The position numbers and the translations under genes are program-made. Source: Candidatus Poribacteria bacterium (GTDB lineage: Bacteria; Poribacteria; WGA-4E; PCPOR2b). From it: a DNA stretch of 64,000 nt. The notes below the pieces were generated by a model that worked only from the letters and a program-made list of their open reading frames with translations, ran no database searches and was not told the origin of the DNA. The stretch spans positions 2,528,001 to 2,592,000 of the forward strand of contig OZ242351.1 of NCBI GenBank assembly GCA_965208675.1, written 5' to 3'. Numbering within the stretch: the stretch's first letter is position 1; each line of letters begins with the position of its first letter. Positions 37,667-56,265 of the stretch are shown in pieces.

Positions 37667-38477
37667 ACAGAAGCGGCAGCTTGTTGAACCGGAGTGCCGT
37701 TCAGTGTCGATTGCAAGACAGTGTGAGCTCTTAGGCTTGTCTCGAGCATCGTTCTATTACACTCCTGTAGGGGAGTCACCACAAAATCTGCTGTACATGC
37801 GTCTGTTAGATGAACAGTACACCAAGAGGCCGTGGTGTGGGGTGCCTAAGTTAACGAAATGGCTTCGTCGTCAAGGATATGTTGTCAATCCGAAACGGGT
37901 AGCACGGTTAATGCGGAAGATGGGATTAGTTGCCATCTATCCCAAGATCTCCAGAATGGGCAAACCGTCGAAAGTGTACCCCTATCTGTTGAAAGGATTA
38001 AGCATCACCAGACCGAACCACGTCTGGGCAACTGACATCACCTATATTCGTTTAAGCCATGGCTTCGTTTATCTGGTAGCCATTATGGATTGGTTTTCCC
38101 GTTATGTGTTGTCATGGGAACTGTCAAACTCCCTCGACGTGTTCTTTTGCCTATCGGCTCTGGAACGGGCGCTTGGTAAAGCGAGTCCATTAATATTCAA
38201 CAACGACCAAGGAAGTCAATTTACTTCGGAGGCGTTTACTGCTAGACTTGAAGCCTCTGGCATAGCCATTAGTTGGAACGGTAGAGGCCGCTACTTTGAC
38301 AACATCTTCGTTGAACGACTTTGGCGCAGTGTTAAGTATGAGGAGGTTTACCTCAACGACTATGATTCAATGAACACGGCTCGGCGCCGCTTGAGAGATT
38401 ATTTCAACTTTTACAACCGAGAGCGACTTCATCAATCGCTCGATTACTGTACACCTTACGAGGTGTATTTTCACTAA
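37641..38477 (+). CDS. IS3 transposase OrfB (DDE integrase core), expressed by frameshift
   Basis: WATDITY, NNDQGSQF, DNIFVERLWRSVKYE; frame is open from the A9 run. Confidence 0.9.
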   Translation, partial: KKKRRASVEQKRQLVEPECRSVSIARQCELLGLSRASFYYTPVGESPQNLLYMRLLDEQYTKRPWCGVPKLTKWLRRQGYVVNPKRVARLMRKMGLVAIYPKISRMGKPSKVYPYLLKGLSITRPNHVWATDITYIRLSHGFVYLVAIMDWFSRYVLSWELSNSLDVFFCLSALERALGKASPLIFNNDQGSQFTSEAFTARLEASGIAISWNGRGRYFDNIFVERLWRSVKYEEVYLNDYDSMNTARRRLRDYFNFYNRERLHQSLDYCTPYEVYFH

Positions 38478-39181: not shown

Positions 39182-39249
39182 ATTCAGATTTTATGGTCTC
39201 AACCAGTTTTGGACGGATTAAGTACGTCCGTTTTTATTTAAGAACGTAT

Positions 39250-39270
39250 TGAAATAGAGTCTCAATATCA
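39250..39270. promoter_or_regulatory. Fur-like 21-bp operator
   Basis: TGAAATAGAGTCTCAATATCA just upstream of the RBS. Confidence 0.65.
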
Positions 39271-39289
39271 ATAACGAAATGAGGTAAAA

Positions 39290-40537
39290 TTGCGCAGTTT
39301 TTGTTTTGGTGTATTTCTAATCTTGATTGCCCAAGCCGCACCGGCTGATTCCGGGCGGCTCCAAATCTCCGGTTACGGGGTAATCAACTACGCTAACTTT
39401 TTTTGGGAAACAGATCCAGAGCGGCGCGCCCATATTGACGTTGAACGGCTTGTCGTCGCGCCGAAGTACCAGGTCAATGACAACATCCGGCTTGAAGCGG
39501 AGCTTGAGTTTGAACACGGCGGCACCGGCATCACAATGGAGTTCGACAAATTTGAGGAGTTTGGCGAATTTGAGATGGAGGTCGAAAAAGGCGGTGAGGT
39601 CATCGTTGAGAAACTGGCTGCAGTCTTTGAGTTTCGTCCAACATTCAACTTGCGGATAGGTCACATCATCGTGCCGGTCGGCTTAACTACCAAACGGCAT
39701 CGCCCGCAACACTACTTCACGACCACCCGCCCGGAATCCGAATCATACCTGATCCCAACCATCTGGCATGAAAACGGAATTGAGATATTCGGCAATATCG
39801 GCGCGTTCAGCTATCAAGCGCAAGTTGTCAACGGATTGGATTCAACCGGATTCAGCTCACGCCGATGGATAGTCGGCGGTCATCAACTGCGTTTTGAGGC
39901 TGCAAATGCTGAAGATTTCGCGCTCGTCGGCCGTGTCGATTACACAGTCACGGACGGAGCCGTTCTCGGACTCTCCGGGTACTACGGCGACAGTGCGGAC
40001 AACCGTCCGAAACCAGACTTTCAGTCAGATGCCCATGTTTCAATTGTCGACCTGCACGGCTTTTACAAGGTCGGCGCATTGAAAATTCGCGGCATGTTCC
40101 TTTACGGTACGCTCGAAAATTCTGAATTTGTCTCCAAAGCCAATCGAAATCTCTCCAACAACTTGAACGTAAAGCGGACACCCGTTGGCAGCCGAGCACA
40201 CGGCGGTTACCTCGAAGTCGGATTCAATGTGCTAACTTTCTTCAAATCATCGCTGAACACGCAGGCGGCGCTCGACCTGTTCATCCGTTACGACAACTAC
40301 GATACAATGGCTGAGGTTAAGGGAGACATCTTCGATAATCCGCGTTGGGAACGGAAGACGTGGACGTTCGGCGCCAATTACCACCCGCATCCGCAGCTTG
40401 TCTTTAAAGGGCACTACTCCGCACGAACATTGGGCTCTACACCCGTAGAGGTGCTAGACACCATACCCATAGAGATATTTGACACCGAATTTGAGGACGA
40501 ACACACTTTCGCGCTCGGATTTGGGTTTCAATACTAA
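39290..40537 (+). CDS. Outer-membrane porin-like beta-barrel associated with imelysin loci
   Basis: Signal peptide, ELEFEHGG, IPTIWHENG, terminal GFGFQY. Confidence 0.8.
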   Translation: MRSFCFGVFLILIAQAAPADSGRLQISGYGVINYANFFWETDPERRAHIDVERLVVAPKYQVNDNIRLEAELEFEHGGTGITMEFDKFEEFGEFEMEVEKGGEVIVEKLAAVFEFRPTFNLRIGHIIVPVGLTTKRHRPQHYFTTTRPESESYLIPTIWHENGIEIFGNIGAFSYQAQVVNGLDSTGFSSRRWIVGGHQLRFEAANAEDFALVGRVDYTVTDGAVLGLSGYYGDSADNRPKPDFQSDAHVSIVDLHGFYKVGALKIRGMFLYGTLENSEFVSKANRNLSNNLNVKRTPVGSRAHGGYLEVGFNVLTFFKSSLNTQAALDLFIRYDNYDTMAEVKGDIFDNPRWERKTWTFGANYHPHPQLVFKGHYSARTLGSTPVEVLDTIPIEIFDTEFEDEHTFALGFGFQY

Positions 40538-40568
40538 ATTCAACATTAAACCAACAAGGAGGAATCCA

Positions 40569-41681
40569 ATGAGATTCAATCAACACTTAGAAAAATTCTA
40601 TTGCAGTACACTATCGACGCTTCTGGTTTTATCAGTCTTTCTCATCGGGTGCGGTCTCTCTGGTTGCGGCGAGGACGAGGAAATCGATCCTGACACGGGA
40701 GCCGCATTTGATGCAACCACCATTTTGAATGACTTCGCTAACAAGGTCGTGCTTGCCACCTACACCGATTTGGACAATAAAGCGAGTGACCTATTAAACG
40801 CTGTCAACGCATTAAACGCAGCCGCCAACCAATCCCATTTGGAATTGGCGCAAACAGCTTGGAAGGCAGCCAGGACACCGTGGGAACAGAGCGAAGCATT
40901 TTTGTTCGGCCCGGTTGATACACAGGGGCTCGACCCGGCGCTAGATAGTTGGCCCGTCAATAAAGTAGACCTCGACGCGGTGCTCGCCAGTGACCAGGAT
41001 TTGACCTCGGCATCCATTGACGCGCTAGAAGACACGCTGAAAGGCTTCCATACTATCGAGTATCTCCTCTTCCGCGAAGGAGACCAGAGAAAAGCTGAGG
41101 AAATTACGCCTCGAGAGCTCGAATATCTAATTGCCACTACGGAGAATCTGAAAGATAAAACTGGCCAGTTGCGTACCGCGTGGGATGCGTCGGGTGAAAA
41201 CTACGCCGGTGAGGTCGCTAACGCCGGCACATCGAGCACCATTTATAAATCACAGAAAGACGGTATGCAGGAGATGATCAACGGAATGATTGTCATCGCC
41301 GATGAAGTCGCTAACGGTAAAATTTCCGACCCGTTCTCCGAGCAGGACACAACCCTCGTCGAGTCGCAGTTTAGCTTCAACTCAATTAGCGATTTCCAAG
41401 ACAATATCCGCGGTATTCAGAATGTCTACATGGGGAAATTCACTGGCGATGGCCAAGGGCTCAACGAATTTATAAATGGAGTGGACGCCGGATTGGACGC
41501 CAGATTCCTTACCGAAGTCCAAACCGCCATTGATACCATCGGTGCGATTCCAGATCCATTCCGAGATTCTATCACTTCCCATCGTTCTTCAGTCCAAGCG
41601 GCAATTGACGCAGTAAATACGGTTCAGCGTACACTTGAGAACGATATCTTAAAGTTGGTGCTAGACGGTAACTTCAATTAA
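40569..41681 (+). CDS. Imelysin/IrpA-like iron-regulated lipoprotein
   Basis: LSGC lipobox, WEQSEAFLFGP, LDSWP, GFHTIEYLLF; AAGGAGG RBS before ATG 40569. Confidence 0.88.
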   Translation: MRFNQHLEKFYCSTLSTLLVLSVFLIGCGLSGCGEDEEIDPDTGAAFDATTILNDFANKVVLATYTDLDNKASDLLNAVNALNAAANQSHLELAQTAWKAARTPWEQSEAFLFGPVDTQGLDPALDSWPVNKVDLDAVLASDQDLTSASIDALEDTLKGFHTIEYLLFREGDQRKAEEITPRELEYLIATTENLKDKTGQLRTAWDASGENYAGEVANAGTSSTIYKSQKDGMQEMINGMIVIADEVANGKISDPFSEQDTTLVESQFSFNSISDFQDNIRGIQNVYMGKFTGDGQGLNEFINGVDAGLDARFLTEVQTAIDTIGAIPDPFRDSITSHRSSVQAAIDAVNTVQRTLENDILKLVLDGNFN

Positions 41682-42638: not shown

Positions 42639-44039
42639 ATGAAATCAAATCATATCTCAAACACCCTATTCGCTGGGATACTGTTCTGTATGCTGATTAC
42701 TGCTTGTGATTCGGACGATCTAACCGATCCGGAGAAGATGGACATTGTGGATAAAAGGTTTTCCGGTGGGGAAACCACGGTTTTTGACGCAACCAGCCAT
42801 GCGTTTTCGACACCTGCCCCAAACCTTTCGGCAGACGGACTCGAAAAACACCTCGACGGAGACCTTGAATTTGAAGCAGTGTTTGTCACAGTGCCGGCGG
42901 AGGTCAACCCGGGGCTCGGTCCAGTTTACAACAATATCTCGTGTATCAACTGCCATGCGCGAGATGGACGGGGACGTGCACCGACATCCGGGGAAAAGCT
43001 CACATCAATGCTTTTCCGCGTGAGTCTTCCAAATACGGACGGTGACGTTACACATGGACCTGTCCCAGTTCCCGGTTTCGGCACACAACTCAACAACCGC
43101 GCGATTTACGGCGTGCCCCCAGAGGGGACGGTTACAATCAATTACACGGAAGGTGAACTCGCGACAAGCGACGGCGCGAAGGTGTATCTTCGCACGCCGA
43201 ACTACAGTATTGAAAACACATATCAACCGTTACCGGACGATGTTGAAATCTCTCCCCGCGTCGCCCCCGTTGTGTTTGGTTTAGGATTGCTTGAAGCGAT
43301 ACCTGAATCGACCATCCTCGCCTTGGCAGACGAGGAGGACCAGGATGGCGATGGCATTTCAGGGAAAGCGAATTACGTCTGGGATGTCCAGAAGAACGGG
43401 TTAAGCCTAGGTAGGTTCGGGTGGAAAGCAAATCAGCCGACGTTGCTTCAACAGGTCGCTTCTGCCTACCACGACGATATCGGTATTACAACTTCGCTAT
43501 TGCCGACCGAGAGTTCGGCTGGACAACCGCAATACGACGGTAGGGGTGACGACCCGGAACTCAGCGATGAAATTATGGACGTGGTGACGTTTTACATTCA
43601 AACCCTTGCAGTGCCTGCCCGCCGCAACCTTGACGACCCGGTTGTTCAGCGCGGCGAGGAACTCTTTGATAGCGCGGGCTGCACCGGATGCCATATCCCG
43701 ATGTTGCAGACGGGAACGCTGGCAGATGTGCCCGCGGTTTCTAACCAGACGATTTACCCATATACCGATCTGCTTCTGCACGATATGGGTCCGGGGTTAG
43801 CAGACTACCGCCCCGATTTCCTAGTGAGCGGATCGGAGTGGCGTACACCGCCGTTGTGGGGTATCGGGTTAATAAAAGTGGTCAACGGACACACCAACTT
43901 TCTCCACGACGGCCGCGCAAGAGGTTTGCTGGAGGCAATCCTGTGGCACGGTGGAGAGGCGGAACAATCGCGTGAGCGAGTTCAGCAGATGCCGGCAAGT
44001 GACAGAGAGGCGCTAATCGCGTTTCTGGAATCGCTGTAG
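42639..44039 (+). CDS. Di-heme oxidoreductase family lipoprotein
   Basis: CINCH and CTGCH heme c motifs, GLGLLEAI, GRFGWKA, YTDLLLHDMG, LHDGRAR. Confidence 0.92.
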   Translation: MKSNHISNTLFAGILFCMLITACDSDDLTDPEKMDIVDKRFSGGETTVFDATSHAFSTPAPNLSADGLEKHLDGDLEFEAVFVTVPAEVNPGLGPVYNNISCINCHARDGRGRAPTSGEKLTSMLFRVSLPNTDGDVTHGPVPVPGFGTQLNNRAIYGVPPEGTVTINYTEGELATSDGAKVYLRTPNYSIENTYQPLPDDVEISPRVAPVVFGLGLLEAIPESTILALADEEDQDGDGISGKANYVWDVQKNGLSLGRFGWKANQPTLLQQVASAYHDDIGITTSLLPTESSAGQPQYDGRGDDPELSDEIMDVVTFYIQTLAVPARRNLDDPVVQRGEELFDSAGCTGCHIPMLQTGTLADVPAVSNQTIYPYTDLLLHDMGPGLADYRPDFLVSGSEWRTPPLWGIGLIKVVNGHTNFLHDGRARGLLEAILWHGGEAEQSRERVQQMPASDREALIAFLESL

Positions 44040-44126
44040 GAATGAAGTCCTATCATCCATTTAGGCATTGGACATTAGTTTTAATCTTTATGATGTAGTT
44101 TATGTCAACAATACTTGAGGAAAAAT

Positions 44127-44546
44127 ATGACCTTGCAAGTTCAAGAGGTTCAAAACAGCCCCAGCACCCCGCGTTTCATCATAGCAGCCAAGACGGACGA
44201 AATTAGACCGGGTAGCTGTATTGACGCAAAGCTAGAAGGGCATTGCATTGGTATCCACAATGTCGATGGACAGTATTACGCGGTCGACAATATTTGTCCC
44301 CATGTTGGCGGAGTTTTACACTCAGGTCAGTTAATGGACGGGGTTATCGTCTGTCCAATTCATCAATGGAAGTTTGATGTCAAGACGGGCGCGTGCATCT
44401 GGCCGGGGAAATGCGAGATTGCGACCTATCCCGTGAAGGTTGACGGCGACCACATTTTTGTTGATATCAATTCACCGAGCCGCCCAATCCAACATAACCC
44501 CATTCGAGTTTATCATACGAAGGCAAAACGGAGGGCAAAGCCGTGA
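44127..44546 (+). CDS. Rieske [2Fe-2S] ferredoxin
   Basis: CPH..CPIH motifs. Confidence 0.9.
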   Translation: MTLQVQEVQNSPSTPRFIIAAKTDEIRPGSCIDAKLEGHCIGIHNVDGQYYAVDNICPHVGGVLHSGQLMDGVIVCPIHQWKFDVKTGACIWPGKCEIATYPVKVDGDHIFVDINSPSRPIQHNPIRVYHTKAKRRAKP

Positions 44547-44899
44547 TAACTGTCGCGAATCGAATTTACGTTGCGCCTGAATTTAGAGAAGACTTCGAGG
44601 CGCGTTTCCGAAATCGCGCACGCCTTGTCGACGGCATGCCCGGGTTCATATCAAATCAGGTGTTGCGGCCGGTAAATGACGATGACCCTTACGTGGTTTT
44701 TACACTTTGGGCATCACGCAAAGACTTTGAAAACTGGGTGGAATCGGATGAATTCCGGAAGGGGCATGCCCAATCCGGAACATTGCCCAAAGAGGCGTTC
44801 ACGCAATCGAACAAGTTAGAACTTCACGAGGTATTTCTCGATTCTTCTCGTCCGGACCTTGTGGAAGAGCCGCACGGCGGCGCATTCAGCGTACATTAG
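44543..44899 (+). CDS. ABM-domain heme-degrading monooxygenase (IsdG/HmoA-like)
   Basis: NRIYV, FEARFRNR, MPGF, W..SDEFRKGH. Confidence 0.82.
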   Translation: MITVANRIYVAPEFREDFEARFRNRARLVDGMPGFISNQVLRPVNDDDPYVVFTLWASRKDFENWVESDEFRKGHAQSGTLPKEAFTQSNKLELHEVFLDSSRPDLVEEPHGGAFSVH

Positions 44900-45046
44900 A
44901 ATGTGTAAAAACAACCGACATTCAGATTTCAGATAAAGGCTCACGAAGATGTACGACGAATTGTTTTCACACGAATCTATCAGTAAAACATATGAGCACA
45001 TTTGTACCGACACGGCGAGTGTGGCTCAATTCGTAAAATTACTTAT

Positions 45047-45067
45047 TGATACTGAGATTCGTTTTCA
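45047..45067. promoter_or_regulatory. Fur-like 21-bp operator
   Basis: TGATACTGAGATTCGTTTTCA. Confidence 0.65.
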
Positions 45068-45082
45068 ATAAATGTGAAAAAA

Positions 45083-45242
45083 ACAGAAAGGGCCAACAAC
45101 AGGGAAAGGGACAGCACGCAACGGTCAATTGTTAGCTAGCTCCCGTATCCCCGTTGATTAGATGAATTGGGGCTTTTTTGCGCCCAATCGGGGCGAACGT
45201 TAGCAAATCAACAATTTCCCAAACGCGCCCCGCCCTTTCTGT
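45083..45242. ncRNA. Unidentified structured RNA element, copy A
   Basis: Closed by ACAGAAAGGGC/GCCCTTTCTGT; shares conserved blocks with 52988-53107; functional strand not settled. Confidence 0.6.
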
Positions 45243-45249
45243 ACAAATA

Positions 45250-45279
45250 AGAGTAAGCCAATCGCTTAACAAATGTCAA
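45250..45279 (-). promoter_or_regulatory. Antisense sigma70 promoter A
   Basis: Minus strand TTGACA-18bp-TACTCT; predicted start falls at the edge of the structured element. Confidence 0.55.
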
Positions 45280-45343
45280 GAAAATAGTACGTCGTCGGTC
45301 AATGACGACGACATTAATAACCATTATCAGGTTGAGGATTTAT

Positions 45344-45598
45344 ATGATGAAACTAACCCCTATCCAATTTAGCATCTTGTTGTTGGTAATGGTGGCTGCA
45401 ACCGGTCTGGTGTTGTCTGGTTGTGAGAGCGACCCTTTGCTTGAACCGCAGTCTCAAGTCCCTGAAGAGACCGGCAGCTACGGCAATACGAATCTCCCGG
45501 TCAGTGGAACCGACAACTCGAACAATGCGGTCAACGCCGGTCAGAATAAAGATATTGACGGCAACCGCTACAGGAAAACCAATCCAGAACTCTTTTGA
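45344..45598 (+). CDS. Small lipoprotein
   Basis: GAGG RBS, signal with LSGC lipobox, low-complexity body ending NPELF. Confidence 0.7.
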   Translation: MMKLTPIQFSILLLVMVAATGLVLSGCESDPLLEPQSQVPEETGSYGNTNLPVSGTDNSNNAVNAGQNKDIDGNRYRKTNPELF

Positions 45599-45617
45599 AA
45601 GTGTAGGGAACACATCT

Positions 45618-48089
45618 ATGCATCAGATTTTAGGAATTTTAATGACATTAATTCTTCTACTAGGCACGCCGAATCTTTGCTTTAGCTCAGTCGAGATTCG
45701 CGGTAAAGTTGTTGACAAAGAGACGGCACAACCGATTATGGGCGCCGCGGTTAGAATTGAATCCAATGGACAGGACTCGCGAGAGACAAAAACGGTACGA
45801 GATGGCACTTTCCATTTTGCTCAGGTTGACTTGGGGCAGATACTGATTAAGGTAAGTCTGATCGGTTATGATGATTATGTTGAGATGCTTGAGATAGATT
45901 CCGATACCACGCAAGCGTTAGACATAGCCTTGTTGAGCCGTCTCTTTGAATTTGCGCCCGTAGAGATCATTGGCAAATCACCGCAGATTAACAGAAAACT
46001 CACCGGCACTATTAGCGTATTGGAACCGCAATCGGTCGAGTTGATTCGCCCGGTTGGGACACAGGAATTGCTCGAACTCATGCCCGGCATAAACGGCTAC
46101 GCGGACGACGGATTCGGAAATTCGCGTTTGAGCATTGGCATCCGCGGTTTGAATCCGCGCCGGAGTGCGCGAGTCCTTATCCTAGAAGATGGTGTACCGA
46201 TTCAACCCGCGGTCTACATCTATCCGAATGCCTACTACAATCCGCCATCAGATAGAATCGATGCGGTGGAGGTCATTAAAGGGAGTGCCGCACTTCGTTT
46301 TGGTCCCCAAACAATGGGTGGGGTCATTAACTATACTACTCATAAACCGGTGGGGACCCGCCGCTTGGCAAATCAGTTGACTGTCGGAAATAACGGATTT
46401 TACAGCGCCTTCTCGGAGTGGCGGGGCCTCGGCAGCAAAAATATCGCTTCCGACGTACAACTGCTTTATAAACACGGCGACGGATTTCGGGAAAACAATT
46501 CGTTTGACCAAGCGAACGGCACCGTAAAGACGCTGTTCCAATTGAGTGAGCAAAAGACGCTCTATCTCAAAGCTAACGGCAATTTTGAAGACTCGAGCGC
46601 GACCTACACTGGATTGACGGAATACTCCTTCCGAACTGACCCAAACTTCAATCCGAAGGAGGACGATAATTTTAAGGTCATTCGTACATCGCTTGATCTA
46701 ATTTACACGAACAGGATTTCAAATAATCTCATAAGCAACACCACCGTATACACAAGCGTGTTTGACCGCCGATGGTGGCGCGAGGATGATATCTACGTTC
46801 GTCCTTCGGCAATTGAAACGGGGAATTTAGCGCCGGTCCCCTATTTTCAAACCGGGGACTTAGTGAGAATAGGCGGCGGAAAAGGGAATTTTGGAATCTT
46901 GAGGACGTTTTACGTCGGCGGCATAGAACAAAATTATTCCTTCAAACACCGCCTTGCCGGGACACACAGCAACGCTGACATTGGCGCACGAGTTCACTGG
47001 GAACGCTTTATCGACGATAAAAAGATTGGTGATGCTCCAGATGCACGCGACGGTGTCTACTACACTGGCACGCCGGTGGACGCCGAAGACCCCGTGAAAA
47101 TTGTGGGTCAAAGCCACCACTACGAAACCGCTGCCCTCGCACTCTATGCTAAAGAACAACTTGAGTGGGACGAGTTCACGCTGACTCCGGGACTCCGCTT
47201 TGAGGTGTTTAAGCAGGACCGAGTTGACCGGCTATACGGTTCTGTGCTAGCCGACAAGGTTTCTTCTGTTGTGTTGCCCGGCATAGGAGCAAACTATCAG
47301 CTCGGTAGATTCAATCTGTTCGGAGGGGTTCACAGAGGATATACAGCGCCATCCAGCGGAGCGTTAAAAATTACCAATTTCGGACAAAACGTCGACGCCG
47401 GCGGGCTCGACCTCAAGGCCGAAAAGAGTTGGAACATGGAAGCCGGTTTCAGGTCTTGGGGGCAGCGTTTGACCGTAGAAGTCACCGGATTCCTAATTAG
47501 CATCTCGGACATAGTCGCGGCAGGACGTGGTACAGCCTTTAAGAATTTAGGTAGAGTTGACAATTACGGATTGGAAACCGCGGTTGCAATCGGCGTTTCA
47601 CGATTCGCACCGTTGCTTCCCGACGTTAATCTTGCTTACACCTATCTCCAAACTGAAATCAAGAGCGGTATCGTCAAGTCCGCCACTATTGCCGGGAACG
47701 TAGATGTAGACCTCGTTGGAAACGAATTGCCCTACGCGCCGCGGCACACCTTGACTGTCGGATTGGCAAAACAGCTTGGTGATGCCCTGCGCTTGAGAGC
47801 AGACATGCGATTTGTCGACAAGGTCTTCACAGACTTTGAGAATATCGAACAGACGTTTAATCGCGGTGATACTGGCCCCATTCCGAGCTACACAATCGTC
47901 AATGCAAGTGCGGATTATAAAATTTCGAGCCAATGGAAGGCTTTTGTTGCGGGCAAAAACCTCTTTGACAAAGTCTACATCGGGTCGAGATTGCACTCGA
48001 ACGCCGGTCAACCAGAAGCAAACCTAAGCTCAGGTATTCTTGTTGGACCCAGGCGGCAGATACTTTTTGGTATCAAGCATGGGTTTTAG
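45618..48089 (+). CDS. TonB-dependent receptor (FecA-like) with N-terminal carboxypeptidase-regulatory-like domain
   Basis: IGIRGLNPRRSARVLILEDGVP plug, EVIKG, NLFD, terminal F; start taken at MHQILG. Confidence 0.92.
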   Translation: MHQILGILMTLILLLGTPNLCFSSVEIRGKVVDKETAQPIMGAAVRIESNGQDSRETKTVRDGTFHFAQVDLGQILIKVSLIGYDDYVEMLEIDSDTTQALDIALLSRLFEFAPVEIIGKSPQINRKLTGTISVLEPQSVELIRPVGTQELLELMPGINGYADDGFGNSRLSIGIRGLNPRRSARVLILEDGVPIQPAVYIYPNAYYNPPSDRIDAVEVIKGSAALRFGPQTMGGVINYTTHKPVGTRRLANQLTVGNNGFYSAFSEWRGLGSKNIASDVQLLYKHGDGFRENNSFDQANGTVKTLFQLSEQKTLYLKANGNFEDSSATYTGLTEYSFRTDPNFNPKEDDNFKVIRTSLDLIYTNRISNNLISNTTVYTSVFDRRWWREDDIYVRPSAIETGNLAPVPYFQTGDLVRIGGGKGNFGILRTFYVGGIEQNYSFKHRLAGTHSNADIGARVHWERFIDDKKIGDAPDARDGVYYTGTPVDAEDPVKIVGQSHHYETAALALYAKEQLEWDEFTLTPGLRFEVFKQDRVDRLYGSVLADKVSSVVLPGIGANYQLGRFNLFGGVHRGYTAPSSGALKITNFGQNVDAGGLDLKAEKSWNMEAGFRSWGQRLTVEVTGFLISISDIVAAGRGTAFKNLGRVDNYGLETAVAIGVSRFAPLLPDVNLAYTYLQTEIKSGIVKSATIAGNVDVDLVGNELPYAPRHTLTVGLAKQLGDALRLRADMRFVDKVFTDFENIEQTFNRGDTGPIPSYTIVNASADYKISSQWKAFVAGKNLFDKVYIGSRLHSNAGQPEANLSSGILVGPRRQILFGIKHGF

Positions 48090-48157
48090 TCAAAACCTTT
48101 CAAACGAGAGGTTTAATCGGTTAAATTTTTAACCATTCAATTTGAAGAGGAGAACAA

Positions 48158-49483
48158 ATGAAAGTGTTTACCGAGCGGATTCTCTGGACAACTGTGCTAC
48201 TCTTGGCGACCAGCCTGTTTGTTGTAGGTTGCGGCGAGGATGACACGGAGGATCCTCTCACTGAAGAACCACCAGAAGGCGACGCCGCCATTCAGGTGCC
48301 GTCCGCTTACGTATTTGACAGTCGTTTCGTTGAAGGCAAAAGCAGCGTTTCCTATTCCGGACAGACGGTGCGCAATCTGCTGTTGCAAGACCTGAAAATC
48401 TTTATTGACAGTTTGGGCAAAGACGGCGCTCGAGCAGCAGCTGTTCAAGAAATGCTTAATCTTTATGATTACGACGATGGACTCAACCTTAAATCACTTA
48501 GTACCGCCGGCGCACTGCCAGTTTTGGAGAGCCATTATTCCTCGATTTCGACCGGCAAAAATCTGTCAGGGAAAATTTCGGGAGACGTCGTCATAGGCTA
48601 CGACCATACCGCGGACGAACTGGTGCGAGAGTGGTTTCAAATTATCGCGGATAACTCGGAAAACCCTGATAAACTCGGAACACCGGCGGTCTACACCGAT
48701 GACAACGGCGTTGACCTGACGCAGATGATTAACAAAGTACTTATCGGTGCGGTGCCTTACTATCAAGCCACGGGAGTTTATCTCGACAGCTTGCTAGACC
48801 GCGACAACAACGAGGCGCGTAATGGAACCGACCCCTACACCGCTATGGAACATGCGTGGGACGAAGCCTTCGGCTACTTTGGCGCTGCGCGAGACTATGC
48901 CCGCTATACCGATGAACAACTCGCCGGCAGCATCGATGATTTTACCTTTGACTCCAACGGCGACGGCAGCATCGATTTCAAGTCGGAGTATAATTTTGGA
49001 CTCTCGCGTAACGCCGGCAAGCGTGATAAAGGGGGCTCTGGCGTGAACTTCACGCAGGAGATTTTCGATGCGTTCCTCAAGGGCCGCACCCTAATCACTA
49101 ACCAAGGCACCGTGGCTGAAATCAGTCAACAGCGGCAGATCGCTGCAAACGGTATGGAGAAGGTAATCGCCGCGACAGTTGTCCATTATATTAACGATAC
49201 GCTCAGCGACATGTCCAAGCTGGGTACGGCGGATGAAAATCGCGTCAATCAAAATAAGCACTGGGCAGAAATGAAAGGGTTTACTGTAGCCCTGCAATAT
49301 AATCCGTTCAGGCTGATTAGCGACGGGCAACTCAGGGAATTGCACGGCATCATGGGTCAGGCGCCAGCCTACGACGCCCCCGGCAGCAACGGGTATGACA
49401 CGACGGTTGCGAACTACAACCGTGCGAAGACTGTGTTGCAGGAAGCGTATGGATTCTCCGGCGCCAATATGGCAAATTGGTAA
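48158..49483 (+). CDS. DUF4856-like iron-locus lipoprotein
   Basis: VVGC lipobox, SVSYSGQTVR, MEHAWDEAFGYFG, KHWAEMKGF. Confidence 0.8.
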   Translation: MKVFTERILWTTVLLLATSLFVVGCGEDDTEDPLTEEPPEGDAAIQVPSAYVFDSRFVEGKSSVSYSGQTVRNLLLQDLKIFIDSLGKDGARAAAVQEMLNLYDYDDGLNLKSLSTAGALPVLESHYSSISTGKNLSGKISGDVVIGYDHTADELVREWFQIIADNSENPDKLGTPAVYTDDNGVDLTQMINKVLIGAVPYYQATGVYLDSLLDRDNNEARNGTDPYTAMEHAWDEAFGYFGAARDYARYTDEQLAGSIDDFTFDSNGDGSIDFKSEYNFGLSRNAGKRDKGGSGVNFTQEIFDAFLKGRTLITNQGTVAEISQQRQIAANGMEKVIAATVVHYINDTLSDMSKLGTADENRVNQNKHWAEMKGFTVALQYNPFRLISDGQLRELHGIMGQAPAYDAPGSNGYDTTVANYNRAKTVLQEAYGFSGANMANW

Positions 49484-49496
49484 GACTTAAACGATT

Positions 49497-50960
49497 GTGG
49501 ACGCACATAGGGAATCAGATCGTCGACATCTAGGCAGATTGGTGATACGCAAATTCTCGGATTTGCGTATCACTGAATTTAAAATGTGGTGTATTGTACT
49601 CGTCCTATGTGTGGCATCGCGGTTGCTTACAACCATATTCTACATCGAAGATTTGGATAGTCTCCGTTTTGCGTTGAGTATGGTTGACTATGATGTCGCC
49701 AAATTGCAACCCCACTTTCCGGCTTACCCCGTCTTCTGTTTTGTCGGCAAGCTGATTTATGCCGTTACGGGGCGTTATGCCTTGGCGTTTTCGCTCATCG
49801 GCGGCGTATCCATATTTTTGACGATTTTTTTCCTACTCAAGATTGCGGGAATTAGAATCACTTCGTCTGCCGGGCTAATTACCGTTTTCGTATTGTTCAT
49901 CAACCCGCTGCTGTGGTTGATGAGCAACCGCTACATGCCGGACGCGATGGGAGTTGGGCTCGTTTTTGCCGGTCTCTATTTCACAACAGTTAAAGACCAG
50001 AATCCGCGTAAAGTCGGGTTCGGGTTCTTTCTTGCGGGAGTCTTAGGTGGGGTGCGCCTCTCCTATCTGCCAATGCTCATACCCGCGCTATTCATGCGGT
50101 TGCGGACAAATTGGATGTCGTTAGGGTTTATCGCGGCGGGAACAGTTGGCGCTATCATTTGGCTAGTCCCTTTAGTTTTCCTCACCGGATGGGAAACACT
50201 GCTCCAAGCCGCTCAGACCCAAAGTCGAGGGCATCTTTTTGAATTTGGCGGCACTGTTGTTAGCCACCCCGAAATGTGGCTGCGAATAACGAAACTTCTT
50301 GAAGGCGTGAGGGCAGACGGATTCGGGCTTTATTGGGGCGGGCGGCATATAATAACCGCATGCACAACTATTACGCTGCTTGGAATTCTCGCCGCAAATT
50401 GGCGCCAGATAAAAAATGTCAAGCGGTCGAGTTTTCTGAGTGCCAGTTTTATCGGATGTGTGGTTTACGTCATCTGGATTTTCTGCTTTCAAAACGTCGT
50501 GAATAAGAGCCGGCATGTTCTGCCGTTAATCCCTTTTTTGGGACTTTTCATCGCGTTTGCCTGTGCTAGAATCGCCGGGCATCGGAACCGTATACTCAAA
50601 GTGGTTTTAGCCGGTTTCTTGCTCTGTTACGGATACGTTACGCTTCATCTGGTTGTGCAGCACAAAAATCCGACGGCGATTGCGCAGATATACCAGTATC
50701 TCAAGGCTAAACAGAGCGATAAACTATGTGTGGTCTCGGTGCCCCTAATAAAATATTACCTTGAATCTCAAGGGCTGAAAGCGGTCTATATCCCGATTAA
50801 AGATGAGGCTGACACCGTGAAACTTGACGAGCAGTTGAGCTCAGAATTCGTAGTCATCGGCAGCCCGCTGCATGGCCGGGCAATGAAAACTCGAAAGACG
50901 TTCTATCACAATCCGTATGTTAATCGGATGTGGTCTGAAATCCCCTTGTTTGAGTATTAA
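49497..50960 (+). CDS. Polytopic membrane protein, GT-C-fold-like
   Basis: About 11 TM segments; early loop EDLDSLRF..YDV..QPHFPAYP; start may be ATG 49584. Confidence 0.6.
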   Translation: MDAHRESDRRHLGRLVIRKFSDLRITEFKMWCIVLVLCVASRLLTTIFYIEDLDSLRFALSMVDYDVAKLQPHFPAYPVFCFVGKLIYAVTGRYALAFSLIGGVSIFLTIFFLLKIAGIRITSSAGLITVFVLFINPLLWLMSNRYMPDAMGVGLVFAGLYFTTVKDQNPRKVGFGFFLAGVLGGVRLSYLPMLIPALFMRLRTNWMSLGFIAAGTVGAIIWLVPLVFLTGWETLLQAAQTQSRGHLFEFGGTVVSHPEMWLRITKLLEGVRADGFGLYWGGRHIITACTTITLLGILAANWRQIKNVKRSSFLSASFIGCVVYVIWIFCFQNVVNKSRHVLPLIPFLGLFIAFACARIAGHRNRILKVVLAGFLLCYGYVTLHLVVQHKNPTAIAQIYQYLKAKQSDKLCVVSVPLIKYYLESQGLKAVYIPIKDEADTVKLDEQLSSEFVVIGSPLHGRAMKTRKTFYHNPYVNRMWSEIPLFEY

Positions 50961-51019
50961 CGTGAGAGTAGAGAGACGTTACTCACATCCAAACTCAATA
51001 TCGCTGAGTAGACAAAAAC

Positions 51020-52360
51020 TTGCAATCAATCGAAACTGACGTTCAGATTCTTGGCGGCGGCCCTGCGGGGTTGGCGGCGGGGTATTATGCCAAACAGCGC
51101 GGCATCAATTTTGCTCTCGTTGAGGCTAGTGCACATGTCGGCGGAAATTGCCGCACACTCCGGGCAGGCGGCTTCCGATTCGATACCGGCGCCCACCGAT
51201 TCCACGATAAAGACCGCGAAGTCACGAGCGAGGTCAAAAAACTTCTGGGCGACGCGCTACTCCGCGTCGAAGCGCCAAGTGAGATTTTTTTCGAGGGGCA
51301 GTTCGTCCAGTTTCCGCTCACATTGACTAATTTGGTGAAGAAACTGGATGCCAAAACCTTGCTAAAAATCGCTTGTGATACACCGGGCGCTGGCCGAGGA
51401 ATATCCGCAGACAACTTCGGGAGGTTTGCGGTCAATCAGTACGGAAAGACATTAGCAGAACGCTTCCTGCTCAACTATTCTCAAAAACTGTGGGGAGAGC
51501 CGCCGCACAAGCTATCTACAGCCGTCTCCGGCAGCAGATTAAACGGATTGGACATCAAAAATTTTATCCGTTCCACCGTCATGGGCGATGTTCAACAGCC
51601 GAGCCATCTGGACGGTTCTTTCCTTTATCCAAGGTACGGCATCGGGATGATTGCAGAAAAAATGCGGGATTTTATTGGAGACCGATGCATCAGAACCAAC
51701 AGCCGAGTGAGCCGCTTAGTTCACAAGAACGGCAAAATCGAACAAATCATATTAAATGGCGGCGATGACGAGTTGCGAGCCACGAAGCTTGTCAACACAT
51801 TGCCATTGACGCTTACAACGAAAATTCTAGACCCGCCGCCGCCGCCGGAGCTTCTAGATGTCGCGAATTCAATCAAATTCAGAAATCTGGTGCTCTGCGT
51901 ATTTTGCTTGAACCGCAACTCCTTTTCGCCTAACGCCTCGCTCTATTTCCCAAGCGAATCGTTTCCTTTTACGCGGCTTTATGAACCAAAAAACCGAAGC
52001 CTTCACATGGCCCCGCAAGGTCAGACGGCAATAGTGCTTGAACTGCCGTGTTACAACCGTGATGCGTTGTGGCGTATGTCGGACAAAGCACGAAAAGCCC
52101 TGGTTTGGAAGGCTTTACAGCATGTTAAACCGATTGCAACTGAAGAAATTCTCTGTTATCGCTCTTATAAGTTGCCTTTTGCTTATCCGGTACTTGAGGT
52201 TGGGTTTGACGAAAACATAAGGCGCTTGATCGATTACCTTGAGGCATTTGAGAATCTATATCTGACAGGCAGAAGCGCGCTCTTTCGCTATCTGCATCTC
52301 CACGACCTGTTTAAAGCGGGGAAAGCGTTGGCAAATCGAATCGTAACGGTGTCCGATTAG
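51020..52360 (+). CDS. FAD-dependent oxidoreductase (protoporphyrinogen oxidase/UDP-galactopyranose mutase-like)
   Basis: GGGPAGLAA, GGNCRT, FDTGAHRF, YPRYGIG, AYPV, GR..FRY. Confidence 0.82.
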   Translation: MQSIETDVQILGGGPAGLAAGYYAKQRGINFALVEASAHVGGNCRTLRAGGFRFDTGAHRFHDKDREVTSEVKKLLGDALLRVEAPSEIFFEGQFVQFPLTLTNLVKKLDAKTLLKIACDTPGAGRGISADNFGRFAVNQYGKTLAERFLLNYSQKLWGEPPHKLSTAVSGSRLNGLDIKNFIRSTVMGDVQQPSHLDGSFLYPRYGIGMIAEKMRDFIGDRCIRTNSRVSRLVHKNGKIEQIILNGGDDELRATKLVNTLPLTLTTKILDPPPPPELLDVANSIKFRNLVLCVFCLNRNSFSPNASLYFPSESFPFTRLYEPKNRSLHMAPQGQTAIVLELPCYNRDALWRMSDKARKALVWKALQHVKPIATEEILCYRSYKLPFAYPVLEVGFDENIRRLIDYLEAFENLYLTGRSALFRYLHLHDLFKAGKALANRIVTVSD

Positions 52361-52431
52361 GGAACCGCGATGATCACTTAAAGATTGTATTATACATACT
52401 AGGAGGAATGTAGTTATTTCATTTCACAATC

Positions 52432-52800
52432 ATGAGTTATAGTGCAGATTTAAGGAAACGAGTTGTCAGTTATGTTAAAGCTGGCGGCAGCAAAATCGAA
52501 GCCGCTCGCCGATTCGATATCAGTCGAAGGACGGTGTACAATTGGTTAGCGTCAGTCAACCTGCCGCCTAAACCGCGGGCGCCGCACGCCCGTAAATTTG
52601 ACATTGGCGCTTTACGGCGTCACGTAAAGGATTATCCTGATGCCATACTCTCAGAACGCGCTCAACAGTTCGGCGTATCCATAAGTACGATATGGTATCA
52701 TTTGAATCAGATGAATTTATGCAGGCGAAACCATCAGCATATCAATAAAAACATCACTGCAACCGAGACAAGTCTTGCCGTGAATACCGTAACCGATTAG
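52432..52800 (+). pseudogene. IS630 transposase N-terminal HTH remnant
   Basis: YSADLRKRV, AARRFDISRRTVYNW, HVKDYPDAILSERA; no DDE domain follows. Confidence 0.78.
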
Positions 52801-52949
52801 ATTTAAAGCCAGGGGAGATGCCATCCATGTTCGTGCGTGGAAATTTGACTCAACTACTTAACGAAGTGCGGCACGACGCCATCATAAGACAACGAGGCAT
52901 CGCATTGGGAGAAACTGACGCCGCCGCATGGTACATTTTTAAAAATGGC

Positions 52950-52970
52950 TGATACTGAGACTCATTTGCA
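52950..52970. promoter_or_regulatory. Fur-like 21-bp operator
   Basis: TGATACTGAGACTCATTTGCA. Confidence 0.68.
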
Positions 52971-52987
52971 TAAATCAGACCTAATAT

Positions 52988-53107
52988 AACAGAAAAGGCG
53001 AACGATAGATATAGGGAAGAACTCGCAACGTCCAATTGTTAGCCGCATTCCCTATCCCTATCGGATTCATAAATTGGGGCTTTTTTGCGCCCACCGCCCT
53101 TTCTGTT
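52988..53107. ncRNA. Unidentified structured RNA element, copy B
   Basis: Closed by AACAGAAAAGGCG/CGCCCTTTCTGTT; long arm CGATAG..ATAGGGAA/TTCCCTAT..CTATCG; shares blocks with copy A. Confidence 0.6.
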
Positions 53108-53113
53108 CCCATT

Positions 53114-53143
53114 AGGATAAGCCAGTCGCTTTGAGATTGTCAA
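53114..53143 (-). promoter_or_regulatory. Antisense sigma70 promoter B
   Basis: Minus strand TTGACA-18bp-TATCCT, same position relative to the element as promoter A. Confidence 0.55.
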
Positions 53144-53170
53144 GAATTTTGCCTAGGAGGAAATCTATAA

Positions 53171-55117
53171 ATGACGTTGCACACCCAAATTTTGATGGGG
53201 GTTTTCGCCATCTTCGCCATTGGGGAAATAACTTTAAAGACAGGCCCCAAATCTGCCTATGCCTTCGATTCAACTGAGTTAACCAATGACATTTTTAAGA
53301 TGGACGAGATTGTCATCACCGGTACAAAAACCGAGCGTCAATTGAAAAATACACCTATTATCACCGAGATTATCACGCGCAGCGAAATCGAAGCAACAGG
53401 TGCAGAGAACATCGGAGAGGCGTTAGAGCATCGAGTGGGTGTCGTTGTCAATCGTGACGCCCACGGCGACGGAGTTCAACTGCAAGGGCTAGATTCGGAT
53501 TACATCCTAATTCTGGTCGACGGCGAACCGCAGGTTGGGCGAATCGCCGGCAAACTGGATCTTGCGCGTATGACAGTCGAAAATGTTGAACGGATCGAGA
53601 TTGTCAAAGGCGCATCGTCTGCGCTCTTCGGCAGCGCCGCGATGGGGGGCGTAATCAACGTTATCACGCGAAAAATATCATCGCCGTTTACTGCTCAATT
53701 CACCAACAACTTCGGGAACCACAACACCATTGACAGCCGTAGCACGGTTGGGTTGAATCGCGGCAAGTTCAACGGGTTAATGACGGTTACTGCAAACCGC
53801 CGAAACCCAATCGACCTGGACAAGTCAGACCTTACGACAACGATTGACGGCTATCAAAACTGGACCCACTCGGCGCGAACTGAGTATCAACTGACCCCAA
53901 AATCAACCCTCCTGTTTTCGGGGCAATATTTTGCCCAAAATCAGGACGGTGTCAGCGAAAGAGAGGGCGCCGTTTTTGACCGGCTCGGCGACATTGACAA
54001 CTTCAGCGGCAGCGTCGGCACGGAATATCAAGTCGGATCCCGCTCAAAGTTGATGGGCAAAATTTACGGCACGCGGTACCGCGATGAATCCACGGTTATC
54101 GACCGCGGCGCATCGCTCACCGCGTCATCAAATGTCACAATTCAAGACCTAATCAAGGGCGAAGTGCAATATGACGCCGCTCTCGGTTCAAAAAATCAAC
54201 TGACCGTTGGCGCAGAACTGATATTTGAAAATCTCGAATCGAAACGCATCACGGGCGGCGAAAAGGACATCACAACCGACTCGCTGTTTTTCCAAAACGA
54301 ATTTCGACCAATGGCAAAACTGTCGATTGTCTTGGGCGGACGGTTTGACAATCACTCCGAATTTGGAACACATTTCAGTCCAAAGTTGAGCGGGATGTAT
54401 CACGTGACACCTAATCTAACGATGCGTACCTCCTTCGGTGAAGGTTTTCGCGCCCCTGACTTCAAAGACCTATATCTCGATTTCAGCAATGTGACATCCG
54501 GGTATCAGGTGCTTGGAAATCCGGACTTACAACCGGAGTCGTCGGGCAACTGGAATCTTGGAGTTGAATACCTATTCAAGTCCTCAATTCGCGGACGGGC
54601 GCACCTGTATCGAAACAACCTAAACAACCTTATTGAAGCGGAACGGATCGGGACAAGCGTGCTTGGTGGGAGTAAGTTTCAGTATTTTAATGTCAGCGAG
54701 GCATTCACTGAAGGGCTTGAAGTCGAATTCTCGACCCGCTCAATTAGGGGATGTGCCGCCTCAATCGGCTATGCATATCTCAACGGCGAGGACAAGGAGA
54801 CCGGTATGGCGCTGCTGAACCGATCAAAGCATAGCGGTAACCTCAAGCTCGTTTACATGAACCCGGACGCCGGTGTCAACCTTGACCTGCGCGGGCGTTA
54901 CGCCAGTAAGTGGGGTTTTTACGACGACGGTGACAAGGTACTTGAAGATGAGGAGTATGCGCCAAGCAACTGGATATGGAACATTCGGGCGTCGAAGCAG
55001 GTCATCAAATGGTTAAAAGCCTCGTTCGGAATCAACAACATCTTCGACTTCAAAATTCCGACCTTTTATCCCTTTTCCGGGCGGTCATTTTACGGCGGTT
55101 TGTCGCTAAATTACTGA
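53171..55117 (+). CDS. TonB-dependent receptor (HmuR/CirA-like)
   Basis: DEIVITGTK, VERIEIVKGASSALFG, GFRAP, NPDLQPE; AGGAGG RBS. Confidence 0.92.
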   Translation: MTLHTQILMGVFAIFAIGEITLKTGPKSAYAFDSTELTNDIFKMDEIVITGTKTERQLKNTPIITEIITRSEIEATGAENIGEALEHRVGVVVNRDAHGDGVQLQGLDSDYILILVDGEPQVGRIAGKLDLARMTVENVERIEIVKGASSALFGSAAMGGVINVITRKISSPFTAQFTNNFGNHNTIDSRSTVGLNRGKFNGLMTVTANRRNPIDLDKSDLTTTIDGYQNWTHSARTEYQLTPKSTLLFSGQYFAQNQDGVSEREGAVFDRLGDIDNFSGSVGTEYQVGSRSKLMGKIYGTRYRDESTVIDRGASLTASSNVTIQDLIKGEVQYDAALGSKNQLTVGAELIFENLESKRITGGEKDITTDSLFFQNEFRPMAKLSIVLGGRFDNHSEFGTHFSPKLSGMYHVTPNLTMRTSFGEGFRAPDFKDLYLDFSNVTSGYQVLGNPDLQPESSGNWNLGVEYLFKSSIRGRAHLYRNNLNNLIEAERIGTSVLGGSKFQYFNVSEAFTEGLEVEFSTRSIRGCAASIGYAYLNGEDKETGMALLNRSKHSGNLKLVYMNPDAGVNLDLRGRYASKWGFYDDGDKVLEDEEYAPSNWIWNIRASKQVIKWLKASFGINNIFDFKIPTFYPFSGRSFYGGLSLNY

Positions 55118-55365: not shown

Positions 55366-55995
55366 ATGAAGAAGATTAGGTTTCTCTTAACACCGATATT
55401 CATCTGCACAATAATTTTCGGCGTGGTACCGGCTGATGCGAAAGTTCACAGCGCAACCGTCACCATTGACGCCACGAGCCGCGAGGCGTGGACATTTTTC
55501 AGCTTCTCAACAGGTAAGCCGGTCGAAGTTGAACACCATTCATCCTCAATAAATTGGGACCTCGGTTTCCAAAGGACAATGGTGATTGTCAACGGTGGTG
55601 CCAGCGGTCCCGGTGAAGGCACCGTCCTAATATTAGAAGGTGTTCAATTTGAAGATGTTGTCGCTGCGCCGGAAGGCGTCTACGTACCGGATACCGACCA
55701 GATTGCCACGATTGCACGGGGAGACGGTTGGTACACCTACACCGGTCCCCCAAATCACTTGGTTCTGCCCAACGATCGGGTCTACGTGCTGCAAACCGCA
55801 GCCGGGCTGTTCGCAAAGTTGCGCTTTATCGGCTATTACAGCGACAACGAAGCCAAGGAAGGCTCTGGTAATATCACCATCGAGTATGCCTTCCAAGACG
55901 ACGGCAGCCGCAGTTTCCAGACGTCTGCTCAAACCTCAGTCGAAGCGAAAGCGAAACTCGTAACGACATGGGCGCGGCTTAAGTTCGGTAGTTGA
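55366..55995 (+). CDS. hmuY: HmuY-family heme-binding protein with C-terminal VEAKAKLVTTWARLK tail
   Basis: IDATSREAWTFFSF, WDLGFQR, NGGASGPG, GWYTY, AKLRFIGYY; start taken at MKKIRF. Confidence 0.85.
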   Translation: MKKIRFLLTPIFICTIIFGVVPADAKVHSATVTIDATSREAWTFFSFSTGKPVEVEHHSSSINWDLGFQRTMVIVNGGASGPGEGTVLILEGVQFEDVVAAPEGVYVPDTDQIATIARGDGWYTYTGPPNHLVLPNDRVYVLQTAAGLFAKLRFIGYYSDNEAKEGSGNITIEYAFQDDGSRSFQTSAQTSVEAKAKLVTTWARLKFGS

Positions 55996-56202
55996 TTCGC
56001 CGACAGATGAACCTTATATGCTTGCTCGCCGCCAATTTGCTGCCGCGGCGAGCAAGATTAGCGAACTTTACTCTATTTAATGTTGTACTCGTAAGGTCTA
56101 CCAATTGCCAACCCAAGACTCCCAAGCTAGTTTGGGTTGTGGACGAGCGTGAAGCTTGTATTGGCAAGTCATGCGTAACGTCAAGGAAATTATTCCCTAC
56201 CA

Positions 56203-56233: not shown

Positions 56234-56265
56234 CACAGCAATCAATTTTGCCAAGAGAATAAAAG

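Follow-up and report, generated by a model that had tools for sequence, protein, structure and literature searches.

Two operons for TonB-dependent receptors in a genome of Candidatus Poribacteria carry, in the untranslated stretch between a Fur-like box and their first start codons, a related structured element, and the question raised by this locus is what the element is, which of its two strands is the functional one, and how it is connected to iron uptake. The window analysed here is the whole stretch of 64,000 nucleotides; all positions refer to it, and the two elements are called copies A and B. A sequence-only reading of the window had taken the element primarily for a leader of the receptor genes, i.e., a riboswitch or attenuator on their strand, and had kept a small RNA tied to iron uptake as its fallback. 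A new RNA and its tie to iron uptake survive our analysis, but strand and type do not: the G.U excess, the promoter, and the U-rich tail are all on the minus strand, and the fallback comes close to what the evidence indicates. Both elements look like copies of one hitherto undescribed gene for a small RNA, encoded on the strand opposite to the receptor operons, and we consider it on balance probable that they encode a new cis-antisense small RNA, ~124 and ~167 nt long in the window, which gates iron-uptake operons.

Every feature on which the earlier reading had been built was found in the sequence where it had been placed. Fur-like palindromes end 15–17 nt before both elements; a closing helix is shared by copy A (ACAGAAAGGGCC/GGCCCTTTCTGT) and copy B (ACAGAAAAGGCG/CGCCCTTTCTGT); the stem letters of a long arm are unlike between the two copies, yet pairing is kept in both; the tips of this arm (GCAACGGTCAATTGTTAGC and GCAACGTCCAATTGTTAGC) are identical at 17 of 19 positions; and the 22-mer AATTGGGGCTTTTTTGCGCCCA is 100% the same. 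Copy A alone has an additional arm, in which GGGGCG (45190–45195) pairs with CGCCCC (45226–45231). The observation that the genes downstream are not close paralogues also held, with copy A leading into a lipoprotein ORF and a CarboxypepD_reg receptor and copy B into a 648-aa receptor and HmuY. The element was placed correctly but drawn too short, as the conserved block does not stop at the closing helix and reaches 45280 and 53143, ~40 nt farther on.

In a BLAST search of the whole 4.89-Mb genome, copy B matched copy A at an E value of 2.5e-15, the two having identical blocks of 22 nt and 11 nt in common, and the remaining matches were all at most 22 nt long with E values of at least 0.18; a covariance-model search of the genome returned exactly copies A and B at E values up to 1. 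Because both searches find only two copies in this genome (and one to three in related genomes), the mobile repeat that the earlier reading had itself raised as an objection was rejected. The extra arm of copy A was likewise rejected as a dispersed repeat, its 23-nt core being without another good match in the genome. Rfam, searched for the window (on both strands) and for eight related loci, gave no family at the gathering score, and with E-value thresholds both regions gave sub-threshold matches only, each well short of its gathering score, the best at 22.7 bits against a gathering score of 45.

Two other checks proposed by that reading, a covariance-model search of related genomes and an inspection of gene context, extended the element well beyond the window and tied it to Fur-boxed iron and heme uptake genes. 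Within the family, BLAST located it in 16 of 29 genomes, in one or two copies each and often a few kb apart, and a covariance model built on the minus strand (R1) found homologues in 75 of the 151 genomes of the order, distributed over four families, with one to three copies per genome where it was found. In family f2, 45 of 104 genomes matched with stricter filters, and the unmatched half may reflect either sensitivity loss or real absence; for the other five families of the phylum, the model gave no match in 11 genomes. In a pattern scan covering 185,579 species, each represented by one genome, 87 stretches were reported, and among the 80 of these listed as loci the model confirmed all 61 titled Candidatus or uncultured Poribacteria and none of the 19 from other taxa, the unconfirmed loci amounting to approximately the chance number estimated by hand. 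A third, divergent paralogue (~152 nt, 52–60 bits) was observed at four loci (L081, L084, L087, and L088) of genus g7 in the family of the window genome, where it faces head-on a gene for a lipoprotein with a C-x4-CH (heme-c-like) motif and has genes with a PSCyt1 domain and with WD40 repeats as neighbours; within 1.5 kb of these four copies, no Fur-like box was found.

When aligned, the RNA comprises four parts, i.e., a closing helix (P1), a variable region, an unpaired linker, and a long hairpin. P1 has 10–12 bp, with GCAGAAAAGGCG pairing with CGCYUUUUCUGC, and the variable region forms one or two hairpins, in the window GGGCGC-A6-GCCCC plus an extra one in copy A. The tip of the long hairpin, GCUAACAAUUGGCNGUUGGGAGC, is nearly invariant through all four families and provides the most conserved columns of the 48-sequence alignment; it is built from two 4-bp stems, with a 2×2 A/G internal loop between them, and a 5-nt loop. 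In the window, these parts are positioned as follows.

45114..45136, minus strand: invariant tip of copy A, where the RNA strand reads GCUAACAAUUGACCGUUGCGUGC
53022..53045, minus strand: invariant tip of copy B, where the RNA strand reads CGGCUAACAAUUGGACGUUGCGAG
45190..45231, minus strand: extra hairpin, seen in the alignments in copy A and the close relative L016

Shorter insertions occupy the site of this extra hairpin in L017 and L019. Across the 48-copy alignment, which as a model-fitted alignment favours structure somewhat, 92.2% of the cells were paired, against 44–53% with slid partners, both sides changed in 19 of 34 pairs, and the covariation score was 0.280 against 0.150 for shuffled data, a value that none of 500 shuffles reached. 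For the invariant tip, alignment pairs 193–202 with 208–217 were 93.6% paired, and within helices 3 and 4 changes on both sides affected 10 of 13 pairs. We thereby show that the predicted fold is supported by covariation. Conservation is concentrated in the helices and the 5-nt loop, and the alignment contains no conserved unpaired junction like those that form ligand pockets. P1 is symmetric: whichever strand is read, its 5' half is rich in A, its core in GC, and its 3' half in U. As a helix closing a three-way junction, it is no textbook intrinsic terminator. The loop of the invariant hairpin reads UUGG when its closing U is included, which we take to fit the YUNR U-turn motif that is typical of antisense recognition loops. 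Two further candidates were dropped along the way: a pseudoknot between the apical loop (plus-strand CCAAU) and AUUGG before the small hairpin, because L026 and L030 break the pairing without compensation, and a small ORF from an AUG of copy B, because the AUG is missing in aligned relatives.

Which strand is under selection can be read from the wobble pairs. The 48 copies aligned to R1, of which 47 distinct rows were counted, come from four families of one order, and in the minus-strand reading 171 of 1569 cells are G.U or U.G against 42 that are A.C or C.A, in an alignment whose fit to a minus-strand-built model biases the counts towards the minus strand. In the family alignment of 22 sequences, columns 14/163 hold G.U in 14, columns 103/149 hold G.U in 17, and columns 124/130 hold U.G in all 22, and a pair that is G.U on the minus strand in most sequences is A.C at the same positions on the plus strand. 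The minus strand also folds more stably in 43 of the 47 distinct copies, with a mean gain of 8.9 kcal/mol (20 of 22 copies in a first set), and the plus strand in the other four. The 12 nt after P1 contain a mean of 7.0 U on the minus strand vs 4.4 on the plus strand (48 copies), U being commoner on the minus strand in 40 copies and tied in five. For the window copies, the minus-strand folds (copy B, -50.1 kcal/mol, z -5.34; copy A, -74.5 kcal/mol, z -5.79) and the plus-strand folds (z -4.7 and -5.2 in a first run, -5.6 and -5.2 in the comparison of the two strands) are both far better than shuffles; single-sequence folding of these two copies does not separate the strands, and, as the z-scores are about equal, the strand call rests on the relatives. 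Selection for structure on the sense strand is thus not what the wobble counts and stabilities indicate, and since the helices are kept on the opposite strand, a plus-strand riboswitch or leader is not supported. Taken together, these comparisons, as we show here, place the predicted RNA on the minus strand.

On that strand, each copy is preceded by a predicted promoter and has a U-rich end, and the two genes are read as follows.

52984..53107, minus strand: small RNA copy B, a predicted transcript of ~124 nt ending in CGCCUUUUCUGUUAUAU
53114..53143, minus strand: predicted promoter of copy B, with -35 TTGACA at 53143–53138, an 18-nt spacer, and -10 TATCCT at 53119–53114
45077..45243, minus strand: small RNA copy A, a predicted transcript of ~167 nt ending in CCCUUUCUGUUUUUUU
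45250..45279, minus strand: predicted promoter of copy A, with -35 TTGACA at 45279–45274, an 18-nt spacer, and -10 TACTCT at 45255–45250

Copy B consists of P1, the small hairpin GGGCGC-A6-GCCCC, the unpaired linker, and the long hairpin with the invariant tip, and copy A has the same architecture plus one additional hairpin beside P1; model R1 matched copy B at 52978–53112 (minus, 125.9 bits, E 7e-23) and copy A at 45072–45248 (minus, 126.2 bits, E 6e-23). That the RNA is produced, and where it starts and ends, is predicted from these sequence features, the ends of copy B from the promoter position and the U-rich tail; among public RNA runs, none was listed for 44100–53900. The copy B promoter has 10 of 12 consensus matches in a consensus scan, with a predicted start near 53107, and that of copy A, with a predicted start at 45242–45244, was read from its sequence and the aligned upstream regions (row L001). 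It is one of the 43 of 48 copies with the pattern TTGAC(A/G)-17/18-TAnnnT, which always ends 9–10 nt before P1 and whose genome-wide rate gives an expectation of 0.001 per such interval. The window promoters are near-consensus and of the sigma-70 type (TTGACA-18-TAyyCT), with predicted starts 2–3 nt ahead of the closing helix, and the conserved block that the earlier coordinates had left outside (plus strand, ATTGTCAAG) is the minus-strand -35 box. By its motif, then, the RNA has a predicted promoter of its own opposite the target gene, as expected for a cis-antisense RNA.

No Fur-like box was found at the small RNA promoter with the local consensus and up to 5–6 mismatches, and the boxes that these scans did find lay only beyond the RNA 3' end or upstream of an adjoining ABM-domain gene; a Fur operator overlapping the RNA's own promoter, as in RyhB and PrrF, was therefore not seen. 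An operator palindrome in the promoter spacer was also considered and set aside, being present in some f1 and f3 copies and not general (best arm 3.7 nt vs 3.2 nt in shuffled sequences). Between the copy A promoter and the lipoprotein start lies a 9-bp GC-rich hairpin (45289–45314, ACGTCGTCG...CGACGACGT), which a scan flagged as terminator-like on the minus strand and which occurs in this genome and its closest relative, L016, only.

The surroundings of the RNA genes comprise the following features.

45046..45068, either strand: Fur-like palindrome TTGATACTGAGATTCGTTTTCAA, 0 mismatches, ~9 nt past the 3' end of copy A
52949..52971, either strand: Fur-like palindrome CTGATACTGAGACTCATTTGCAT, ~13 nt past the 3' end of copy B, found by pattern match and consensus scan
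44543..44899, plus strand: ABM-domain gene, 118 aa (Pfam ABM, E 1e-22)
45344..45598, plus strand: sense target A, gene 1, a small lipoprotein ORF (MMKLTPIQFS...LSGCESDPLL) starting 65 nt past the small RNA -35 box
45423..48089 (open frame), plus strand: sense target A, gene 2, a TonB receptor (Pfam Plug, TonB_dep_Rec_b-barrel, and CarboxypepD_reg)
53171..55117, plus strand: sense target B, a 648-aa TonB-dependent receptor (Pfam) starting 28 nt past the small RNA -35 box

A degenerate Fur-like pattern matched three times in the window against 0.14 expected, and the genome encodes the Fur family twice. The palindrome at 45046–45068 is presumed to be the operator/promoter region of the sense operon. 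The third match, at 39251–39269 within a palindrome at 39249–39271, lies just upstream of ORF 39290–40537 and is without a small RNA copy; this ORF heads a cluster with imelysin (40479–41681), NUDIX, DHOR (42639–44039), Rieske, and ABM genes. In f1 and f3, Fur-like palindromes are directly past the RNA 3' end, and in f2 and f3 they precede the adjoining ABM gene. The stop codon of ABM directly adjoins the RNA 3' end in f2, where the element lies between this stop and the ribosome-binding site of the next gene, not in a first leader position. From these positions it follows that in f1 to f3 all Fur-controlled sense transcripts would traverse the RNA gene head-on; the sense and antisense transcripts would overlap only with a sense start located at the box or ahead of it. 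A plus-strand scan found no sense sigma-70 consensus at either Fur box, and TTGATA (-35-like) with TAAAT (-10-like), in or next to the box, may be read as a candidate sense promoter. A terminator scan of the plus strand from the element to the start codons found none, and P1 with its weak U run on that strand could act as a terminator. A conserved block, ~GGTATCGCTCAATAAAGTTGCACA, was observed ~25–50 nt upstream of the Fur-like box (plus orientation) in L017–L035; it is present in most f1 copies and poorly kept in both window copies, and could belong to the sense promoter or form another operator.

Downstream, a sense ORF of at least 70 aa with a Shine-Dalgarno-like motif was found at 45 of 48 copies, starting 14–161 nt (median 59) past the model's 5' end and roughly 20–40 nt beyond the small RNA -35 box, the two shortest distances looking like false starts; at these 45 copies the RNA gene is flanked by the sense start codon on one side and a Fur-like box or ABM gene on the other. 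At least four types of sense gene occur: PepSY_TM-like genes followed by TonB receptors, TonB receptors directly, the small lipoprotein gene followed by a CarboxypepD_reg-type receptor (copy A), and a gene for a lipoprotein with a heme-c-like motif (third paralogue). The lipoprotein ORF at 45344–45598 has 58% identity to its L023 counterpart over 83 residues (tblastn), and its signal peptide ends in LSGC. Since it overlaps the open frame from 45423, the receptor probably starts after 45598; a frameshifted receptor following copy A was rejected, the first ORF being a conserved small lipoprotein gene. Receptor B is followed by HmuY-family genes and a heme/iron ABC system. Within this heme-uptake cluster, the ORFs 55992–56471 and 56266–56766 (plus strand) overlap in different frames, the latter matching only the C-terminal part of Cytochrom_C_asm, which could be a frameshift or an assembly error. 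An N-terminal fragment of an IS630-type transposase (HTH_Tnp_IS630, 52432–52800, plus) ends ~150 nt short of the Fur-like box of copy B, and 37704–38477 (plus) holds an rve integrase ORF; the heme-uptake module with copy B may have moved or been rearranged.

Across the order, the small RNA gene has the ABM gene as its conserved neighbour on the upstream side, the two being convergent; the ABM gene is preceded by Rieske, DHOR, and imelysin genes, and the 118-aa ABM ORF adjoins the RNA in f1, f2, and f3. In each of four relatives without the RNA, the ABM gene is retained, and no Fur box, small RNA, or receptor leader comes after it, the region downstream having been read as unannotated sequence; at these loci (L183–L186, from G006, G007, G028, and G015), ABM has 86–91% identity and is followed by unrelated sequence. 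For the small RNA gene, we show here the promoter motif, the synteny, and the distribution among taxa.

Each element would then be a small RNA gene in its own right, encoded on the minus strand with a promoter, a three-way fold, and a U-rich 3' end, sitting head-on in the untranslated stretch between a Fur-controlled promoter and the ribosome-binding site of an iron-uptake gene, which may encode a PepSY-like membrane protein, a TonB receptor, or a lipoprotein. Because the gene is embedded opposite the leader (in f2, the intercistronic spacer), its RNA would be fully complementary to that leader, and it is from this arrangement that we infer pairing and a negative effect. Two components may contribute: the strong convergent promoter would interfere with sense transcription, and the RNA would pair with the nascent leader, probably beginning at the invariant hairpin loop, and reduce read-through or stability. 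Under iron sufficiency, Fur would hold sense transcription low, and the antisense promoter and its RNA would remove leakage; upon derepression, sense transcription would outrun the antisense RNA, and the receptor genes would remain tightly off until then. The identical blocks of 22 nt and 11 nt mean that each RNA could act on the other operon too, and the conserved fold suggests that the RNA itself matters, beyond the act of its transcription.

RNase III is the usual enzyme cutting sense-antisense duplexes. Searches with PF14622 and PF00636 gave no match in the window genome, and PF14622 gave none in 41 genomes of the order (this one and 40 others), with 8 of 14 control genomes positive; duplex cleavage by the usual route is therefore doubtful. 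Hfq (PF17209) was not found in the window genome. A pure cis-antisense RNA needs no apical hairpin that is invariant throughout an order, which indicates a further partner. A bolder extension, which we hold only tentatively and regard as unlikely, is that the invariant hairpin, with its two short stems, tandem A/G internal loop, and UGGCN loop, would serve as a module for recognition, its partner being a protein or the matching hairpins of all leaders, and that the RNA would be the central post-transcriptional regulator of iron in Poribacteria, acting both in cis and across operons. If this were true, RNA duplexes would have to be read out by some unfamiliar route in a lineage in which neither Hfq nor RNase III was found.

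The same invariance can be turned into a different account, in which the RNA acts mainly in trans as an iron-response small RNA analogous to RyhB or PrrF, is merely housed by uptake genes, and uses the hairpin as a seed or protein site. The apical hairpin and P1 are nearly invariant in four families while the rest varies, there are one to three copies per genome, the third paralogue is found beside genes without a nearby Fur-like box, and iron small RNAs of other bacteria often adjoin uptake genes, all of which speak for such an RNA. We nevertheless think this doubtful, because its promoter has no overlapping Fur-like palindrome, its promoter spacer has no consistent inverted repeat, and its head-on geometry to the sense start codon is fixed at 45 of 48 copies before at least four gene types. 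Further, the four relatives without the RNA are also without the Fur box and receptor leader after ABM, a crude complementarity search of the own genome, run without gene annotation and with G.U disallowed, stayed at chance level, and Hfq is among the proteins that were not found there.

Two other accounts give the minus-strand RNA no role. That the plus-strand transcript is the functional one, as a ligand- or metal-sensing leader or an attenuator with P1 and the U-rich stretch as its terminator, would suit an element that lies in a leader after a Fur box, folds well on the plus strand, has a moderately U-rich run after the 3' half of P1 there too, and in f2 must be crossed by sense transcripts to reach the PepSY and receptor genes. 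It is nonetheless very improbable in view of the excess of G.U over A.C, the greater stability of the minus strand in most distinct copies, the conserved promoter and richer U tail on that strand, the lack of an Rfam riboswitch or leader at threshold, and the lack of a conserved unpaired junction of the ligand-pocket kind; the sole opposite-strand model match among the 80 listed loci scored 23.5 bits against 153.9 at the same locus, which is weak evidence because the model was trained on the minus strand. A DNA-level or transcriptional element, i.e., a bidirectional terminator or insulator between ABM and the receptor module in which the firing of the promoter matters and the RNA does not, could draw on the symmetry of P1 on either strand and on the f2 arrangement, where the element directly abuts the ABM stop codon. 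The internal long hairpin covaries away from any terminator function (helices 3 and 4), and the G.U asymmetry implies selection on one RNA strand, so that we give this account hardly any credence. The cis-antisense gate is the reading that we carry into comparison with known systems.

IsrR is an iron-stress-repressed cis-antisense RNA to isiA in cyanobacteria that sets an expression threshold; it lies opposite the coding region, does not cover the leader, and its co-degradation model relies on duplex cleavage. The Poribacteria RNA is likewise a cis-antisense candidate inside an iron-regulated locus, but it lies opposite the leader, has no Rfam match, and belongs to an order in which no RNase III domain was found in the 41 genomes searched. 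RyhB, PrrF, and FsrA are Fur-repressed small RNAs of the iron regulon, often beside uptake genes, that have a Fur box on their own promoters and act in trans on the mRNAs of iron-using proteins. In the Poribacteria RNA, which unlike these has neither an Rfam match nor an Hfq found in its own genome, the Fur-like box lies beyond the RNA 3' end and would serve the opposite promoter.

For the proposed mechanism, parallels are offered by two further antisense RNAs. RnaG of Shigella flexneri is antisense to the icsA leader, being transcribed from the complementary strand within the leader region, and is reported to act both by transcriptional interference from a strong convergent promoter and by antisense-induced premature termination (PMC2879508); it is described elsewhere as a 450-nt RNA (PMC3185424). 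The Poribacteria RNA would resemble RnaG in its location in the target leader and in a strong, here predicted, antisense promoter converging on a weaker, regulated sense promoter, and interference with attenuation is the mechanism that we propose for it. The two have no sequence or structural relation, the Poribacteria targets are iron-uptake genes under a Fur-like box, and RnaG is a single virulence-plasmid locus, whereas the Poribacteria RNA is a multi-copy family conserved across an order; a pairing-dependent terminator like that of RnaG was not identified at the Poribacteria loci. MtlS of Vibrio cholerae is reported to be a small RNA fully complementary to the mtlA 5' untranslated region, with a level inversely coupled to mtlA sense transcription (PMC6597380). 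It would share with the Poribacteria RNA a transporter-gene 5' untranslated region as its complement and the threshold behaviour that we propose, but the two are not homologous, and MtlS belongs to a sugar regulon, is single copy, and has no reported order-wide fold. With no Rfam match, the Poribacteria RNA shows no homology to a named antisense RNA family, and it would be a new family of the cis-antisense kind. In the literature searched, as far as its texts were available, no paper connects Poribacteria with a regulatory RNA of their own, be it a riboswitch, an antisense RNA, or another small RNA.

For scans of this type, the locus carries the caution that a structure in a leader may belong to the other strand. 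For Poribacteria, an uncultivated phylum of sponge symbionts, the RNA would be a well-supported small RNA family whose link to iron and heme uptake can be tested and concerns a trait that matters to host-associated life. The Fur box, the head-on small RNA gene, and the ribosome-binding site would form a portable regulatory cassette placed before several unrelated uptake genes, and, if the RNase III gap holds, one would have to ask by what means these bacteria carry out antisense control when that enzyme is lacking.
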